A stretch of DNA of 64,000 nucleotides from Escherichia coli. GTDB taxonomy: Bacteria > Pseudomonadota > Gammaproteobacteria > Enterobacterales > Enterobacteriaceae. Under the pieces are notes generated by a model that worked only from the letters and a program-made list of their open reading frames with translations, was not told the origin of the DNA and searched no databases. Positions 1 to 6,605 of this stretch are shown here, piece after piece; position 1 is the stretch's first letter; every line of letters begins with the position of its first letter. A program made the position numbers and the translations under genes. The DNA lies in the NCBI RefSeq assembly GCF_003019035.1, contig NZ_CP027447.1; one strand, 5' to 3'.

Positions 1-1
1 A

Positions 2-250
2 CTGTACTTTTACCCCGGCCCGGAATCCGAACCTATTCTGGCCGCGGCTGAATCGTCGTTCAGGAAGTGGCTGGCTGAGCAGGGGCTTATCGGTCAGGAC
101 GTGGCGTTGTCCGCCATTGCTGCCGCACTGCATGTGCACGGTGTGCAACGCGTGGAGATAATCGAACCCACACAGAATATGGCCATCAGCGACATACAGG
201 CGGCGCGCTGTGAGTCATTCACCATCAGCGAAGGTGGGCGCAATGAGTAA
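2..250 (+). CDS. P2-like baseplate assembly protein J, C-terminal fragment (truncated by window start)
   Basis: Open frame from window edge to TAA at 248-250, overlapping the start of the downstream gpI-like gene; position immediately upstream of I-H as in P2 V-W-J-I-H order. Confidence 0.5.
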   Translation: MYFYPGPESEPILAAAESSFRKWLAEQGLIGQDVALSAIAAALHVHGVQRVEIIEPTQNMAISDIQAARCESFTISEGGRNE

Positions 251-851
251 TTCGTTGTTACCACCATCAGCCAGCAATTTCATGCGTTGTGCCGAAGCCG
301 TCGGAACACGCATTACAGACATTCCGGTAGACCTCAACACGCTGTGGTCGCCGGACACCTGCCCGGTGCATCTGCTGCCTTATCTCGCCTGGGCGTTTTC
401 CGTTGACCGCTGGGATCGCAACTGGCCGGAAGAGACAAAGCGACAGGTGATTCGTGATGCATGGCTGATACACCGACACAAAGGGACCATCAGCGCACTG
501 CGAAGAGCCGTGGAGCCTCTCGGCTACCTGATTGAAGTAAAGGAGTGGTGGCAACTCAACGAGGAGCCGGGAACATTTCGCATTGTTGTCGGAGTACTTG
601 ATCAGGGCATCACCGATGAAATGTATCAGGAACTTGAGCGCCTTATTGCGGATGCAAAACCAGTAAGTCGCCATCTGACAGGGCTGGCGATCAGCCTGAG
701 TGTGAACGGAAAGATTTTCGTTGGTACGGGATGCTATCACGGCGATGCCCTGACGGTTTATCCCTACACCCCGGAGTCCATTATTGTCGAAGGGGATTAT
801 TTCCCTGCCCCGGCCATTCATTTAATTGATAATCTGAGAGTAAACGCATGA
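243..851 (+). CDS. P2-like baseplate/tail protein I
   Basis: ORF track 210..851 (GTG); more likely ATG at 243 (MSNSLLPP...). Lies between J and tail fibre H; stop overlaps H start (ATGA). Confidence 0.6.
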   Translation: MSNSLLPPSASNFMRCAEAVGTRITDIPVDLNTLWSPDTCPVHLLPYLAWAFSVDRWDRNWPEETKRQVIRDAWLIHRHKGTISALRRAVEPLGYLIEVKEWWQLNEEPGTFRIVVGVLDQGITDEMYQELERLIADAKPVSRHLTGLAISLSVNGKIFVGTGCYHGDALTVYPYTPESIIVEGDYFPAPAIHLIDNLRVNA

Positions 852-2353
852 CAGTGAAATACTACGCCATTCTGACTAATCAGGGCGCGGCACGACTGGC
901 TAACGCGACGATGCTCGGCAGTAAGCTGAATCTGACGCAAATGGCCGTTGGTGATGCAAATGGTGTGTTACCAACACCAGACCCTGCACAAACAAAACTG
1001 ATTAACCAGAAACGCATTGCACCGCTGAATCTTCTGAGTGTTGACCCTAACAATCAGAGCCAGATTATTGCGGAACAAATCATCCCTGAAAACGAGGGAG
1101 GATTCTGGATCCGTGAGATTGGTCTTTATGATGATGAAGGCGTACTTATTGCGGTGGCAAACTGCCCGGAAACGTACAAACCGCAGTTGCAGGAAGGCAG
1201 TGGACGCACCCAGACTATCCGCATGATTCTGGTTGTCACGAACACCGAAGCCATCACGCTGAAAATCGACCCGTCAGTGGTTCTGGCAACCCGCAAATAT
1301 GTGGATGATAAAATCTCAGAGCACGAACAGTCACGACGTCACCCGGACGCCTCGCTGACCGTAAAAGGTTTTACTCAGTTAAGCAGTGCAATTAACAGTG
1401 AATCAGAAACACTGGCCGCAACACCGAAAGCGGTTAAGGCTGCATATGACCTGGCTAACAGGAAATATACCGCCCAGAACGCCACCACTACACAAAAAGG
1501 GATTGTTCAGCTCAGTAGCGCCACGAACAGCACGTCTGAAACGCTGGCAGCGACACCAAAAGCTGTTAAGGCGGTAATGGATGAAACGAACAAGAAAGCA
1601 CCATTAAACAGCCCGGCACTGACCGGAACGCCAACAACACCAACAGCGCCACAGGGGACTAATAATACCCAGATCGCAAGCACGGCTTTCGTTATGGCTG
1701 CGATTGCCGCACTTGTAGATTCGTCCCCTGATGCACTGAACACGCTGAACGAACTGGCTGCGGCGCTGGGCAATGACCCGAACTTTGCGACTACCATGAC
1801 TAACGCGCTTGCGGGTAAGCAATCGAAGGATGCCACCCTGACGGCGCTGGCGGAGCTTGCTACATCAGCAGATAAACTCCCATATTTTACAGGGGCAGAT
1901 CGTGCCGCGTTAACCGCGTTGACAAGTGTTGGACGTGCCATTCTTGGTAAAACCAGCACTCAGGGAGTTCTTGATTACCTTGGTTTGGGGGAAGGCTCTG
2001 CGCTGCCCGTTGGTGTACCTGTTCCATGGCCCTCAGCCACACCGCCAACGGGGTGGCTAAAATGTAACGGAGCAGCATTTTCTTCTGAAAAATACCCCAA
2101 ACTGGCAAAGGCTTACCCAACGTTAAAATTACCGGATTTACGGGGTGAGTTTATCCGTGGCTGGGATGATGGGCGCGGGATTGATGCGGGACGTACCCTG
2201 CTTTCTGGGCAGGATGGTACAAGTTTTTCTCATTACGGAGGTAATTTCGACATTGGGTCTGGTCATTCAATCAATAACTATGACCAAATTGTTTCTAACC
2301 AACCAGGCTTTTCCCGTTTTTCATTTGCGGGCCTTCACGAGGTGATGGGTTAA
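848..2353 (+). CDS. Phage tail fibre protein (P2 gpH-like), constant N-terminal part fused to currently attached variable C-terminal cassette A
   Basis: 501-aa ORF with Ala/Thr-rich repeats typical of tail fibres; C-terminal region begins with the block LGLGEGSALPVGVPVPWPSATPPTGWLKCNGAAFSSEKYPKLAKAYPTLKLPDLRGEFIRGWDDGRG that recurs in five other cassettes. Confidence 0.8.
   Translation: MTVKYYAILTNQGAARLANATMLGSKLNLTQMAVGDANGVLPTPDPAQTKLINQKRIAPLNLLSVDPNNQSQIIAEQIIPENEGGFWIREIGLYDDEGVLIAVANCPETYKPQLQEGSGRTQTIRMILVVTNTEAITLKIDPSVVLATRKYVDDKISEHEQSRRHPDASLTVKGFTQLSSAINSESETLAATPKAVKAAYDLANRKYTAQNATTTQKGIVQLSSATNSTSETLAATPKAVKAVMDETNKKAPLNSPALTGTPTTPTAPQGTNNTQIASTAFVMAAIAALVDSSPDALNTLNELAAALGNDPNFATTMTNALAGKQSKDATLTALAELATSADKLPYFTGADRAALTALTSVGRAILGKTSTQGVLDYLGLGEGSALPVGVPVPWPSATPPTGWLKCNGAAFSSEKYPKLAKAYPTLKLPDLRGEFIRGWDDGRGIDAGRTLLSGQDGTSFSHYGGNFDIGSGHSINNYDQIVSNQPGFSRFSFAGLHEVMG
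1376..1573 (+). repeat. In-frame tandem 44-codon repeat inside the tail fibre gene (QLSSA-NS-SETLAATPKAVKA motif twice)
   Basis: Motif at 1376.. and again at 1508.. (132 nt apart) in the H reading frame. Confidence 0.6.
1968..1993. other. Invertase crossover site 1 (hix/gix/cix-like), + orientation, inside H at constant/variable junction
   Basis: Sequence ...ACC TT GGTTTGGGGGAAGG... (core TT ~1980-1981) repeated at five other places; resembles the AAACC-NN-GGTTT architecture of Hin/Gin/Cin/Pin sites. Confidence 0.6.
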
Positions 2354-2404
2354 TTATGTAACCATTCGTCCTCGTAATATTGCGTTTAATTACATCGTAA
2401 GGGC

Positions 2405-2430
2405 AGCATAAAAACGTTGGTTTGGGGAAG
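2405..2430. other. Invertase crossover site 2, + orientation (variant with GGGG instead of GGGGG)
   Basis: CATAAAAACG TT GGTTTGGGGAAGG at 2408-2430, immediately after the conserved cassette end RPRNIAFNYIVRAA-stop. Confidence 0.55.
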
Positions 2431-2897
2431 GCTCTGCGCTGCCCGTTGGTGTACCTGTTCCATGGCCCTTAGAAACACCGCCAACGGGGTGGCTAAAATG
2501 TAACGGAGCAGCATTTTCTTCTGAAAAGTACCCCAAGCTGGCAAAAGCCTACCCCACCAATAAATTACCGGATTTACGGGGTGAATTTATTCGTGGCTGG
2601 GATGATGGGCGAGGAATTGATGCAGCACGCGCTTTATTGAGCATTCAAACCGGGATGTTGGAAAAACACCGCCATATTGTTGTAGCTAACGATGGATATG
2701 ACACAAAGGATGAATGGGAGTTGGCCACGATTTTCAAAAAAACATATACACAAGGCAGGGGGCTTGATGCCACAAATACAGGAGGGAGTTTGATTCCATC
2801 ACCAACGCTTCATTCACGAGGAAGTATTGGTAACACAGGTGGTAGTGAAACCCGCCCCCGCAATATTGCATTTAACTATATCGTGAGGGCGGCTTAG
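2421..2897 (+). other. Promoterless tail-fibre C-terminal cassette B (silent, + orientation)
   Basis: Frame beginning FGEGSALPVGVPVPWPLETPPTGWLKCNGAAFSSEKYPKLAKAYPTNKLPDLRGEFIRGWDDGRG... ending ...ETRPRNIAFNYIVRAA-stop at 2897; no start codon at its 5' end (ORF track only picks internal Met at 2637). Confidence 0.6.
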
Positions 2898-2903
2898 TTA
2901 TAT

Positions 2904-3515
2904 TCAACTGGCTGCTGCCAGTGGTATTTCCGGCCAGTTGATATCTGATGCCATGTTTATATCCATTGCGTTCAGTGCGTCTATATAATCCAGCACGGCG
3001 TTAAGCCGGGTGGTTTCTGCCTGCGTCAACTTCCGCCCGGCCCGCAACTTCAACTGAATCAGACTAATGGAAGCCATTGCAGTATCAATCAGCGACTGGC
3101 GCTGTGTTTCTGCCGCTTCTACTGCGGCGCTATGCTGTGCCTCGGTATCCGTCACCCATTTTTCACCATCCCATTTATCGTATGGTGTTAACGGGGCGAT
3201 AGTGGTTGTATTTTTCGGGTAGTCACCCAGCGTCGTGATTTCTTCGGTGTTTCCCGTATCAGTGCTATAGACGGTTTCACCACGATGATCTGGCGTATAC
3301 TCCCATGAATTTAAATTCTCCGAACGGCGGATAGCATAGCCCGCTTTATGTGCGCCCGGGGCATCTAAACAGGAATTTGCCGGAATACCGACACCCGCAG
3401 CAAGATATTCAGTTGATTCGGAAATATATTCCCGTGTCTCACCATCATAGTTATAAACGACGATGTTTCCTGCCTGTACGGCAATAAGGTCATCATTTAA
3501 TATCGCGTTATTCAT
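2904..3515 (-). CDS. Tail fibre assembly protein (Tfa / P2 gpG-like chaperone)
   Basis: 203-aa ORF immediately downstream (minus strand) of cassette C with ATGA overlap; position and size as for tfa genes following tail fibre variable segments. Confidence 0.6.
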   Translation of the reverse strand: MNNAILNDDLIAVQAGNIVVYNYDGETREYISESTEYLAAGVGIPANSCLDAPGAHKAGYAIRRSENLNSWEYTPDHRGETVYSTDTGNTEEITTLGDYPKNTTTIAPLTPYDKWDGEKWVTDTEAQHSAAVEAAETQRQSLIDTAMASISLIQLKLRAGRKLTQAETTRLNAVLDYIDALNAMDINMASDINWPEIPLAAAS

Positions 3516-3973
3516 TATGCGGTTCTCACAATATAATTGAAGGCAATATTGCGTGGGCGGGTTTCATTCCCCTCTGAGGATTCCGTTCTGTATTGACTGG
3601 TAAATCTACCGTTAATTGCACCTTGCCGGACGGCGTTATCTGTCGACAACAGACTATCCCCTCCTTTGTCATTTGGCACCAGTACCGTGTTATCCCACGC
3701 ATCCCATGACCGAATATTATGATAATGACTTCCTGTTAACCACCCCTGCATGCTTAAGATGCCCCTTCCGGCATCCACCCCGCGCCCATCATCCCAGCCA
3801 CGAATAAATTCACCCCGTAAATCCGGTAATTTTAACGTTGGGTAAGCCTTTGCCAGTTTTGGATACTTTTCAGAAGAAAATGCTGCTCCGTTACATTTTA
3901 GCCACCCAGTTGGCGGCGTGGCTGAGGGCCATGGAACGGGCACACCAACGGGCAGCGCAGAGCCTTCCCCCAA
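3515..3973 (-). other. Tail-fibre C-terminal cassette C (silent, inverted), followed by tfa
   Basis: Begins with conserved GEGSALPVGVPVPWPSATPPTGWLKCNGAAF... block, ends ...ETRPRNIAFNYIVRTA; starts at crossover site, no ATG. Confidence 0.6.
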
Positions 3974-3990
3974 ACCAACGTTTTCATGCT
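3965..3990. other. Invertase crossover site 3, inverted orientation
   Basis: CCTTCCCCCAAACC AA CGTTTTCATG on + strand (reverse complement of site consensus). Confidence 0.55.
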
Positions 3991-4451
3991 GCCCTTACGA
4001 TGTAATTAAACGCAATGTTATGGGGGCGTGTTTCAGATGCTGTGCGAACTGAGCGAGAGGCGTCGAATGTCCATACAGAAGCACCATATCCTTCAATGAT
4101 CTCAGTTGGTTGTAAGCCTACTGATAATATAGAGTCAGTTTGACTAAATGGTCCTGAATTAAACGCATCTTTAAAAAGCTGAGTACGCCCAAAAGTGCCA
4201 ACTATATTCTGAATAGCGTCAGACTGTGCAGACAGTAGGTTGCGCCCATTATCAACGCCCCGTCCGTCATCCCAGCCGCGAATAAATTCGCCCCGTAAAT
4301 CCGGTAATTTATTGGTGGAGTAGGCCTTTGCCAGATTGGGGTACATTTCAGAAGAAAATGCTGCGCCGTTACATTTCAGCCACCCCGTTGGCGGCGTGGC
4401 TGAGGGCCATGGAACGGGCACACCAACGGGCAGCGCAGAGCCTTCCCCCAA
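3984..4451 (-). other. Tail-fibre C-terminal cassette D (silent, inverted)
   Basis: Same conserved N-terminal block and C-terminal ...ETRPHNIAFNYIVRAA; distinct variable middle. Confidence 0.6.
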
Positions 4452-4468
4452 ACCAACGTTTTTATGCC
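4443..4468. other. Invertase crossover site 4, inverted orientation
   Basis: CCTTCCCCCAAACC AA CGTTTTTATG on + strand. Confidence 0.55.
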
Positions 4469-4890
4469 GCCCTTACGATGTAATTAAATGCGATATTTCG
4501 CGGCCTGACAGCAACAAAATTTATACCATCACCTACAGAGTTACTGGTGAAATTAAATCGTGAAAATCCTGGCTGATTTCCGACGATGCCATCATGAAAA
4601 TTAATTGCGTGCCCCGCACCATCACCTATATTTCCGGCACGCTGAGAAAAATTTGTAGCCTCTTGGCTGCTTAATAATGCTCGCCCATTGTCCACACCTC
4701 GTCCATCATCCCAACCTCGAATAAATTCGCCCCGTAGATCCGGCAATTTATTGGTGGGGTAAACCTTTGCCAGATTTGGGTACTTTTCAGAAGAAAATGC
4801 TGCTCCGTTACATTTCAGCCACCCCGTTGGCGGTGTGGCTGAGGGCCATGGAACAGGTACACCAACGGGCAGCGCAGAGCCTTCCCCCAA
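4462..4890 (-). other. Tail-fibre C-terminal cassette E (silent, inverted)
   Basis: Conserved N block; variable part ...GHAINFHDGIVGNQPGFSRFNF... is paralogous to attached cassette A; ends ...RPRNIAFNYIVRAA. Confidence 0.6.
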
Positions 4891-4907
4891 ACCAACGTTT
4901 TCATGCG
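4882..4907. other. Invertase crossover site 5, inverted orientation
   Basis: CTTCCCCCAAACC AA CGTTTTCATG on + strand. Confidence 0.55.
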
Positions 4908-5410
4908 GCTCTTACGATGTAATTAAACGCAATGTTACGAGGACGGTTTTCGTTTGCAGTTGGAACAATTCTTGAAGCATCAAGGCCAATCACTTTTGGG
5001 TAAACAGCGCCATCTGTTCTTTCTGTCACCATACTTCTGACTAAGGAGAAATAACTATTGTTCGTTGAGGGGCTCAAAGGCACTACTGCCCCCTTAAACG
5101 AACCTACTGATTCCCATATTGAATAATTTTCGGTGTTTACAGTCTTGAACTCACCATAGATATTACGTATGGCATCGCCCTGAGCGGATAATATTGCCCT
5201 CCCCGTATCCATACCACGTCCGTCATCCCAGCCACGAATAAATTCACCCCGTAAATCCGGTAATTTTAACGTTGGGTAAGCCTTTGCCAGTTTTGGATAC
5301 TTTTCAGAAGAAAATGCTGCTCCGTTACATTTTAGCCACCCAGTTGGCGGCGTGGCTGAGGGCCACGGAACGGGCACACCAACGGGCAGTGCAGAGCCTT
5401 CCCCCAAACC
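4901..5410 (-). other. Tail-fibre C-terminal cassette F (silent, inverted)
   Basis: Conserved N block and ...NRPRNIAFNYIVRAA end; ORF track extends it to 5464 by 17 fortuitous codons outside the crossover site. Confidence 0.55.
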
Positions 5411-5424
5411 AACGTTTTCGTTTT
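5399..5424. other. Invertase crossover site 6, inverted orientation (right boundary of invertible region)
   Basis: CCTTCCCCCAAACC AA CGTTTTCG on + strand, ~55 bp upstream of the invertase start. Confidence 0.55.
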
Positions 5425-5478
5425 TATCCCTACCTATACCAACTATGTATTTTTCACGAAACAAAGAGGATGTTTTTT

Positions 5479-6078
5479 ATGCAAATTGGCTATATTCGTG
5501 TGTCAACAAATGACCAGAACACGGATTTACAACGCAATGCACTGAACTGCGCAGGATGTGAACTGATTTTTGAAGATAAAATCAGCGGAACGAAATCAGC
5601 CAGACCGGGATTGAAAAAACTGCTCAGAACGCTATCAGAAGGAGATACGCTGGTTGTCTGGAAGCTGGACAGACTGGGCAGAAGTATGAAACACCTGATT
5701 ACGCTTATTGAGGAATTGCGGGAAAAAGGTGTTAATTTCCGTAGTCTGACGGACAGCATTGACACATCAACACCCATGGGGCGTTTCTTTTTTCACGTCA
5801 TGGGGGCTTTAGCCGAAATGGAACGTGAATTAATTGTAGAGCGTACACTGGCCGGACTGGCAGCAGCACGCGCACAAGGACGCATTGGCGGACGTCGCCC
5901 GAAGTTGACAAAAGAACAACACGAGCAAATAGCGAGGCTGATTAAAAACGGTCATGACAGGAAACAACTGGCGATCATTTACGACATCGGCATATCGACG
6001 ATTTATCGTTATCACCCTGTAGGCGATATACAGGCTGAAGAAACAACCAGGCAGACTCAGGAAAATGAAAACCGCTAA
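5479..6078 (+). CDS. Serine DNA invertase (Hin/Gin/Cin/Pin family site-specific recombinase)
   Basis: MQIGYIRVSTNDQNTDLQRNAL... with catalytic-serine resolvase/invertase N-terminal domain and C-terminal HTH (GISTIYRY); SD AAGAGGA before ATG 5479. ORF-track N-terminal extension from 5272 is the reverse complement of cassette F. Confidence 0.9.
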   Translation: MQIGYIRVSTNDQNTDLQRNALNCAGCELIFEDKISGTKSARPGLKKLLRTLSEGDTLVVWKLDRLGRSMKHLITLIEELREKGVNFRSLTDSIDTSTPMGRFFFHVMGALAEMERELIVERTLAGLAAARAQGRIGGRRPKLTKEQHEQIARLIKNGHDRKQLAIIYDIGISTIYRYHPVGDIQAEETTRQTQENENR

Positions 6079-6104
6079 TCTGACCATTAGCGGTTTTGCG
6101 TTAA

Positions 6105-6599
6105 TCAAAACAGCCCTTTAACGGAGCTGGCCGCGCTGTTAAGGGATGATGTGACCTTATCTTTGAAGCCGGACAGCATATCACTGAACGATGAGGATTG
6201 CAGGCGCTCCCGCAAATCCTCATCACAGCGTTCAAGAGTCAGTGAAAATTCTATCTTTTTCGCCTTACCGTAGCGATCAAACTCGGAGCGGGTCGTATTC
6301 GTTTCAGTCAGTACATACATGCCGTAAATCTGCCCGACACCATCAATCAGAGGCCAGGGGCGTCCTGTATATGCCTGCGTGGTCAGCAGCGAAAGCGACA
6401 CTTCGCCACCTGTAATTTCAGGATAAAGCACGCCAGAAAGCACGATGCGATCATCACCTGCACCGATATACTGCCAGCTTGCTGAGCGGTTTACGCGCTC
6501 ATTTTTCACATGCCGCCAGCTTTTGTTTTGCTGTAACTGCTGATGCGGCAGTGTGCGCAGCTCAAAAACAAACATGCCGTAGATCATCATCATGACCAT
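6105..6599 (-). CDS. P2-like tail protein U
   Basis: ~160-aa ORF directly downstream of the tape-measure gene on the minus strand; N-terminal region resembles P2 gpU. Confidence 0.6.
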   Translation of the reverse strand: MVMMMIYGMFVFELRTLPHQQLQQNKSWRHVKNERVNRSASWQYIGAGDDRIVLSGVLYPEITGGEVSLSLLTTQAYTGRPWPLIDGVGQIYGMYVLTETNTTRSEFDRYGKAKKIEFSLTLERCDEDLRERLQSSSFSDMLSGFKDKVTSSLNSAASSVKGLF

Positions 6600-6605
6600 G
6601 ACTCC

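Follow-up and report, generated by a model that had tools for sequence, protein, structure and literature searches.

The 64-kb stretch of Escherichia coli DNA analysed here (from contig NZ_CP027447.1; the whole stretch is called the window) contains a prophage tail-fibre gene, followed by a row of partial fibre segments and a gene for a serine DNA invertase, with one short motif recurring along the way. The locus raises the question of whether the prophage can exchange the tip of its tail fibre by DNA inversion at many sites, and of whether such a switch would be out of the ordinary for a chromosome. The original prediction, made from the sequence alone, answered yes to both. We consider it very probable that the locus is a multiple DNA-inversion switch of the Gin/Cin/Pin/Min (Din) family, acting in the tail-fibre gene of a P2-family prophage. 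The switch is not unusual, and it is neither the largest nor the first chromosomal example.

Crossover sites

The window was searched on both strands with the crossover pattern AACGTTGGTTTGGGGGAAGG, with up to three mismatches allowed and with shuffled sequence as the control. Exactly six matches were identified, compared with a mean of 0.01 in the shuffles, none of which reached six. Two are on the plus strand (1976-1995 and 2413-2432) and four on the minus strand (3963-3982, 4441-4460, 4880-4899 and 5397-5416), and five of the six are perfect. The motif has the form AAAACG-TT-GGTTTGGGGGAAGG, and its central TT is found at 1980, 2417, 3977, 4455, 4894 and 5411, the positions at which the original prediction had placed its six copies.

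In an alignment of the six sites the TT core is identical throughout, and the right half, beginning GGTTTGGGGGAAGG, is invariant save for the loss of one G from a run in the second site. The first site, S1 (1968..1993, plus strand, 26 bp, core TT at 1980-1981), has fixed fibre DNA as its left half (CTTGATTACC) and GGTTTGGGGGAA as its right half. S2 (2405..2429, plus strand, core TT at 2417-2418) carries the G-run deletion in its right half (GGTTTGGGGAA). The other four sites, recognised by the pattern search and the alignment, are on the minus strand: S3 (3965..3990, core 3977-3978), S4 (4443..4468, core 4455-4456), S5 (4882..4907, core 4894-4895) and S6 (5399..5424, core 5411-5412). The outer half of S6 is fixed non-coding DNA beside the invertase gene. 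Both outer flanks are constant, in that the fibre-side flank of S1 is the same in all related loci and the flank GATAAAAACGAAAACG of S6 is beside the invertase gene in all of them.

The left half AAAACG is common to S2-S6. At S2-S5 it is positioned after the stop codon of the preceding cassette, and at S6, which has no cassette before it, it is part of the non-coding DNA adjoining the invertase gene. Thus, the left half is conserved where it is non-coding, and coding constraint is not the explanation for its conservation. The sites are close to published crossover sites of the same family, such as that of EC958 Phi2 (GAGAGATAAACG TT GGTTTGGGGGAA), and have the properties of Din-family sites: a length of 26 bp, imperfect symmetry, a shared 2-bp core and inverted orientation. 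A repeat search indicated that each site heads a block of 207-239 nt, with 83-93% identity between copies, and that the blocks form both direct and inverted pairs.

Fibre gene, cassettes and chaperone gene

The constant N-terminal part of the tail fibre (848..1979, plus strand, ~377 amino acids), present in every arrangement, is encoded by the first part of an open reading frame (ORF) at 848-2353. Database homologues of the fibre carry the Pfam domains PF12571, PF03406 and PF07484, and they share the N-terminus up to residue 378 and then continue into many different C-termini. The right half of S1 already codes for the start of the collar domain (GLGEG...). Translation of the cassettes confirmed the predicted series of a conserved block (66 amino acids, GEGSALPVGVPVPWP...GWDDGRG), a variable segment and a conserved end (RPRNIAFNYIVRAA). 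The six variable segments are all different and are roughly 50-95 amino acids long. The predicted layout fails for one copy, cassette a, in which the conserved end is out of frame.

Cassette a (1982..2416, plus strand) is the sole cassette joined to the constant part, and is expressed as the C-terminal part of ORF 848-2353, as the original prediction had it. The accompanying claim that the remaining copies lack start codons does not hold, as the silent cassettes have in-frame TTG codons; none has an N-terminal fibre part of its own. Cassette b (2419..2897, plus strand) is silent, and is the first half of a central head-to-head segment whose second half is cassette c (3515..3976, minus strand). 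Cassettes d (3984..4454), e (4462..4893) and f (4901..5410) follow on the minus strand and, like c, are silent and intact. We identified the cassettes, including f, as tail-collar domains, given that they match PHROG 523 and, by sequence, the structures 9CUY (short tail fibre), 2XGF and 1OCY (T4 gp37 and T4 gp12). NCBIfam returned no match for the fibre, one cassette or the chaperone gene product.

The locus encodes a single tail-fibre assembly (chaperone) gene, tfa (2904..3515, minus strand; PHROG 105 'tail fiber assembly', E = 2e-93), whose homologues are annotated as tail fiber assembly proteins and have Caudo_TAP Pfam matches. A PDB sequence search with Tfa found nothing. The gene is directly downstream of cassette c, its cognate upstream partner, whose stop codon overlaps the tfa start codon (TAATG), and the 3' end of tfa is 6 nt from the stop codon of cassette b on the other strand. 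One tfa gene is thus present for six tips, and a head-to-head core with a single tfa is found in all the collar-type multi-site loci examined.

The invertase

The original prediction placed a Hin/Gin/Pin-family invertase gene at the right edge of the array, and this assignment is borne out. The gene (5479..6078, plus strand) is an intact ORF for a protein of 199 amino acids, a serine DNA invertase of the Gin/Cin/Pin/Min/Hin group with the catalytic serine at position 9. The protein has the Pfam domains PF00239 Resolvase (E = 2.7e-51) and PF02796 HTH_7 (E = 3.4e-12), matches PHROG 125 ('DNA invertase'), and is ~75% identical to the Gin protein of phage Mu over 185 residues (PDB 4M6F/3UJ3, E = 3e-91). 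The catalytic serine is in place, as RVSTNDQ aligns with RVSTNDQ of Gin (in 3UJ3 this serine is replaced by alanine). NCBIfam gave only sub-threshold matches to other serine recombinases.

Residues specific to invertases that depend on Fis and an enhancer have been described as Lys47, Arg48, Lys51, Gln151, Arg154 and Leu155 of Hin (McLean 2013). In the alignment with Gin, with the correspondence read by eye, the protein has KK..R (LKKLLR) and Q..RL (EQIARL) at these positions.

The invertase is identical at 198 of 199 residues (99.5%) to the enzyme of the E. coli strain E2348/69, and the single difference is C-terminal. At least 1000 contigs encode exactly this protein, among them loci arranged in many different ways, and an intact invertase gene is adjacent in all related loci. 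An identical invertase is also encoded at two-site loci (L018 and L024) whose fibre is of another type, having a Gp53-like domain at its C-terminus, and which have two Caudo_TAP chaperone genes. Thus, one enzyme works with unrelated cassette families.

Inversion in the E2348/69 locus

Alternative arrangements of the same strain were sought by an identical-locus search, and a pair of E2348/69 assemblies was used in their place. This enteropathogenic E. coli strain has the best match to the region among complete E. coli genomes (locus L001, 86% of the query aligned at 96% identity), and none of these genomes exceeds 96% over the whole region. The likeness extends to the prophage type, the gene order, the crossover sequence and the fixed flanks, and cassettes a, b and c and tfa are shared. 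The E2348/69 locus differs in having three sites (a and b on the plus strand, tfa and c on the minus strand), four arrangements and three tips, to which the window adds cassettes d, e and f and three sites. A further difference is that cassette a and S2 carry 1-nt deletions in the window and are intact in E2348/69.

Two overlapping inversions in the P2-like prophage of E2348/69 (NC_011601.1, 1891695-1893703 and 1892127-1893703) were detected by paired-end sequencing and confirmed by polymerase chain reaction (Goldberg 2014, Genome Med 6:112). Four variants were present together in cultures from single colonies, and switching was reported for 10-50% of the cells in a single colony. The sites that we located in this locus, at 1891692, 1892131 and 1893699, coincide with the published coordinates. 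Inversion is thus real in a locus near-identical to that of the window. The same kind of switching was seen in PacBio reads of strain EC958, at 26-bp breakpoint sites very like those of the window (Forde 2014).

The second E2348/69 assembly (CP059840.2) holds a large inversion, by which c is fused to the constant part and a adjoins the invertase gene. When the two assemblies are compared base by base, the exchange maps to the interval from the base immediately preceding the TT core to the first polymorphism between a and c, 37 nt downstream, and across the assembly pair the flanks are swapped exactly at the core. Together with the near-identity of the two invertases and the shuffled cassettes of other loci (below), this assembly pair gives good support to the predicted mechanism, in which multiple inversions join alternative C-termini to a constant fibre N-terminus.

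Between the window and E2348/69, cassette a is a mosaic: its conserved block (1982-2190; 4182-4390 in L001) is only ~90% identical, but the variable part after it is almost 100% identical. The pattern suggests that conserved blocks of different cassettes have undergone gene conversion with one another.

Mechanism and arrangements

The fixed 5' part of the fibre gene (848-1979) ends in a 26-bp site for crossover, and five further copies of the site stand at the heads of promoterless cassettes. Cassettes a, d, e and f are single, and b and c face each other around the single tfa gene. We propose that the invertase would pair any two oppositely oriented sites, cut at the central TT and invert the intervening DNA. 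By analogy with Gin and Hin, it would probably need Fis and an enhancer within its own 5' coding region. Every junction would have to join a 'cassette-end' half-site to a 'cassette-start' half-site. From this inversion-only junction rule follows a fixed layout: the constant part, any number k of single cassettes on the plus strand, the b-tfa-c segment, which may face either way, the other single cassettes on the minus strand, and the invertase gene.

Breadth-first enumeration from the present state gave 2 x 5! = 240 arrangements, all reached in six or fewer inversions. The number of arrangements that express a given cassette is 48 for a, d, e and f and 24 for b and c. One inversion of the present state suffices for c, d, e or f to be expressed, and b takes two. 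The general formula for n sites is 2 x (n-1)!, which for three sites predicts four arrangements, matching the observation in E2348/69 (Goldberg 2014).

The layout rule was checked in the 19 loci with at least three sites whose order was read, the window included. In every one of the 19, all plus-strand cassettes are to the left of the tfa segment and all minus-strand cassettes to its right. Within this layout, the same cassette types (a-f, h and i) are found at different positions and on different strands. L001, L005 and L007 have cassette a fused to the constant part, and L006, L013, L017 and L019 have it on the minus strand beside the invertase gene; cassette h is fused in L022 and on the minus strand in L007 and L021. 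Also fused to the constant part are an intact cassette b (L020 and L023), cassette d (L015, L017 and L019) and cassette e (L008).

For every one of the six tips there is a genome in which it follows a fibre N-terminus; for e this is seen only in loci, and not among the 120 proteins listed. In the protein search, tips a, b, c, d, f, g, h and i, and at least 15 further tips, follow a fibre N-terminus. Tip f is fused to the constant part in 40 of 120 fibre clusters among the matches listed. The junction is at residue 378, where the window has it, for tips c, f, h and i, and at residue 422, on a longer N-terminus, for tips a, d, g and most b matches.

Array sizes in related loci

The conserved block is present in 607 of 5426 complete E. 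coli genomes, in up to 12 copies per genome. Chromosomal P2-like prophages with an identical or near-identical invertase have from three to eight sites: there are five in L002 and L007, six in L012, L013, L020 and L022, and eight in L021 (strain 23AR0998), which is at the same chromosomal position as the prophage of the window. Given these five-, six- and eight-site loci, we reject the view that six sites would be exceptional for a chromosomal array, and the 'unusual complexity for a chromosomal P2-like element' claimed in the original prediction cannot be maintained.

Plasmids related to P1 and p15B have larger arrays, with nine sites in pMCR_SCKP-LL83 and 13 in a 92-kb E. coli plasmid. In the latter (L010; NZ_CP196102.1, P1-like), the 13-site array occupies 155-7058, and cassettes a, e and i are each present twice. 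By the formula it would have about 2 x 12! arrangements, and it is the largest array among those examined.

Counter-evidence and alternative explanations

Several observations weigh against a fully working switch in this strain. A single arrangement is visible for it. Two cassettes are damaged as sequenced, in that the expressed cassette a is truncated and S2 and cassette b are frameshifted in the right half of the site. In half of the arrangements, the present one included, the tfa gene runs antisense to the fibre gene, and a scan of 1-6700 for sigma-70 promoters and terminators, in which counts were at chance level, found no promoter for it. The first 240 nt of the invertase gene are 71% identical to gin, and the two have in common, at the same position (nt 71-85), one loose 15-mer with the Fis consensus, with no convincing pair. 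Finally, E2348/69 has other Din-family invertases, so that the experiment of Goldberg 2014 does not prove which enzyme acted.

The damage to a and b bears on the number of tips. Comparison with the intact E2348/69 copy (blastn) identified two 1-nt deletions in cassette a, at ~2329 and ~2347, as a result of which the ORF stops at 2353 (ending ...FAGLHEVMG) and RPRNIAFNYIVRAA, which extends to 2410, is in another frame. The same comparison indicates that S2 reads GGGG rather than GGGGG at ~2431, which puts cassette b out of frame after fusion. In the frame analysis, cassette b at S2 is in frame 0 and all other sites are in frame 2. S1 and S3-S6 share one common reading frame, and the 3' segments are accordingly in frame, b excepted as sequenced. 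The sequence thus has four intact tips (c, d, e and f), unless the deletions are assembly errors, and the 'up to six' alternatives of the original prediction have to be reduced by one truncated cassette and one that is out of frame.

These three deletions near S2 could be real decay, or could be errors in the consensus at a heterogeneous breakpoint. If they are real, the switch is partly decayed: S2 no longer recombines or gives a frameshifted product, a-b-tfa-c is one head-to-head block, and five sites remain, which give 48 arrangements, and the intact tips number four (c, d, e and f), with a defective expressed fibre in which cassette a lacks the last conserved strand. We regard this as possible, if short of probable. 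It is consistent with the position of all three deletions in a stretch otherwise nearly 100% identical to the intact E2348/69 copy, with the deviant frame of S2, and with the frequent decay of prophage genes that are under no selection. However, two of the three deletions are in G runs, and all three are within ~100 nt of an inversion breakpoint, where reads of mixed orientation degrade the consensus. The same loss of a G from GGGGG is found in other assemblies with many annotated frameshifts (L006, L012 and L021). Furthermore, no broken ORFs were noticed elsewhere in the window, which was not checked gene by gene, and an 11-kb alignment to an E. coli genome differs by only 2 nt in length. If the deletions are consensus errors from mixed-orientation reads, they would be a hint of active switching in the sequenced culture.

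A further alternative is that past duplications left a static array of fibre-tip pseudogenes that does not switch at present, its invertase being silent or inactive in this strain; we consider this very unlikely. Such an array would be in keeping with the one visible arrangement, with the damage to the expressed cassette, and with the spacer upstream of the invertase gene, in which no recognisable sigma-70 promoter was found and promoter-like matches are at chance level. It is difficult to reconcile with five perfect sites and with an intact invertase ORF whose exact product accompanies loci in many arrangements, and which is one C-terminal residue away from the enzyme of a locus proven to switch.

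Hardly credible is a third explanation, by which RecA-dependent homologous recombination between the inverted repeats of 210-240 nt makes the rearrangements and the motif is conserved only as a coding repeat: the repeats are long (207-239 nt, 83-93% identical), and the mosaic of cassette a does point to gene conversion over evolutionary time, but the E2348/69 crossover is confined to the first 37 nt of a ~220-nt repeat and starts exactly at the core, the left half-site is conserved outside coding sequence and beside the invertase gene, which is always adjacent and intact, the breakpoints in the EC958 PacBio data are at 26-bp sites, and the switching frequency within one E2348/69 colony is far above what would generally be expected of diverged 200-nt repeats.

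We therefore retain the multiple-inversion switch as the best account of the locus, and predict that inversion occurs in this strain as it does in E2348/69. In exactly half of the 240 enumerated states, tfa and the fibre gene have the same orientation. Given that tfa is antisense in the other half and that the scan gave no promoter for it, some arrangements may not yield a functional fibre. The switch may conceivably set both the choice of tip and the co-expression of the chaperone, although we consider this doubtful. If it did, there are two ways in which this could be so: Tfa is needed by c alone and most collar-type tips fold unaided, or one half of the arrangements consists of 'off' states that are assembly-incompetent. 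We found no description of such a coupling of tip choice to chaperone supply for Min-type systems.

Genomic context

The surroundings of the array are those of a P2-family prophage, with gpI upstream and gpU, tape measure, tube, sheath and gpD genes downstream. The prophage is chromosomal, in an E. coli-type chromosome, and adjoins flk, fabB and mnmC. The gene upstream of the fibre gene (243..851, plus strand) encodes a P2 gpI-like tail or baseplate protein; homologues in E2348/69 and other loci are annotated as 'phage tail protein I', and Pfam Tail_P2_I is found on homologues.

The tail module at 6105-12957 (gpU, tape measure, gpE, tube and sheath) lies on the other strand from the baseplate and fibre genes; gpD returns to the plus strand. 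In phage P2 itself, all of these tail genes point one way. The invertase gene is placed at the point where the fibre-side genes and the tail-module genes converge. Between the convergent invertase and gpU genes is a hairpin with a 12-bp stem (6068..6097, a consensus match only), which was the only element from the promoter and terminator scan that looked meaningful. It is likely a terminator insulating the switch from the tail operon.

The attachment region at flk/fabB holds P2-family prophages with differing fibre modules (L003, L004 and L021). In FDAARGOS_1303 and TUM10008 the module consists of a long non-invertible fibre gene, tfa and an acetyltransferase-like gene, and in 23AR0998 it is the eight-site invertible array. 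The fibre module is exchanged as a unit at this site. The sole tRNA gene in the window, tRNA-Arg(CCT) at 45459-45533, is far from the prophage, and we saw no link between the two.

Relationship to known inversion systems

Besides the E2348/69 module, the closest known systems include the Min system of plasmid p15B (Sandmeier, Iida, Arber), with its relatives on P1/P7-like plasmid prophages. As in these, the window has more than two sites, in both orientations, and one Din-family invertase gene in the locus; promoterless tail-collar cassettes are joined to a constant fibre 5' part, and a single tfa gene is part of a head-to-head segment. Homology to p15B min was judged by proxy via pMCR_SCKP-LL83, a segment of which is reported to be 99% identical to p15B min over 92% coverage. 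The invertase of the window is 97% identical to those of pMCR_SCKP-LL83 and the 92-kb E. coli plasmid, and Tfa is identical to its pMCR_SCKP-LL83 counterpart at 171 of 204 positions. Cassette types a-e recur in both plasmids and f in the 92-kb plasmid, at ~88-92% DNA identity. Based on the identity of the invertases and the sharing of cassettes a-e with pMCR_SCKP-LL83, we conclude that the module in the window is a chromosomal relative of Min, and that the comparison drawn in the original prediction was apt. The p15B system reportedly has six mix sites and 240 isomers, a number equal to that obtained by enumeration for the window.

The carrier distinguishes the two, being a chromosomal P2-family prophage in the window and a P1-related plasmid in the case of p15B; this is a difference of carrier and not of mechanism. 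The fibre's N-terminal part also differs from that of the Min-type plasmids, and the plasmid arrays examined are larger (nine and 13 sites). The locus is a further member of the Min-type multiple-inversion systems, and a host-range switch of a kind that is already well described. Programmed inversions in tail-fibre genes have already been catalogued systematically.

The two-site systems (Mu G/Gin, P1 C/Cin, e14 P/Pin, and EC958 Phi1, Phi2 and Phi4) resemble the locus in their homologous enzymes, 26-bp sites and 2-bp core, in having the invertase gene abut one site, and in exchanging the C-terminal, receptor-binding part of the fibre. They differ in having two sites, two states and two pairs of tip and chaperone (S-U and S'-U' in Mu), whereas the window has six sites, six tips and one chaperone gene.

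The original prediction also called the locus shufflon-like, and the E2348/69 module is named a shufflon by the authors of its description (Goldberg 2014). In the R64/IncI shufflon (Rci, sfx, pilV), several sites likewise reassort alternative C-terminal segments of one adhesin-like gene. However, Rci is a tyrosine recombinase that acts on asymmetric sfx sites and alters the tip of a conjugative pilus, in contrast to a serine invertase acting on a phage tail fibre. The locus of the window resembles a shufflon by analogy only.

Implications

The locus is one more example of an invertible tail-fibre array and introduces no new principle, and its features bear on how such regions are annotated and assembled. 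Annotation routinely lists silent cassettes as 'phage tail protein' genes in their own right. Consensus errors arise easily in the region, and a single reference represents just one state among as many as 240. For phage engineering, large cassette arrays offer a stock of receptor-binding domains that is ready for use.

The cassettes of P2-like prophages and of P1/p15B-like plasmids come from one shared pool, and the two kinds of element have a nearly identical invertase. The tips of the window probably differ in receptor specificity, and a population of lysogens would release phage (or tail-like particles) of mixed receptor specificities. Invertible fibre tips would in this way spread the risk for a temperate phage, or for a domesticated tail, over different host receptors.

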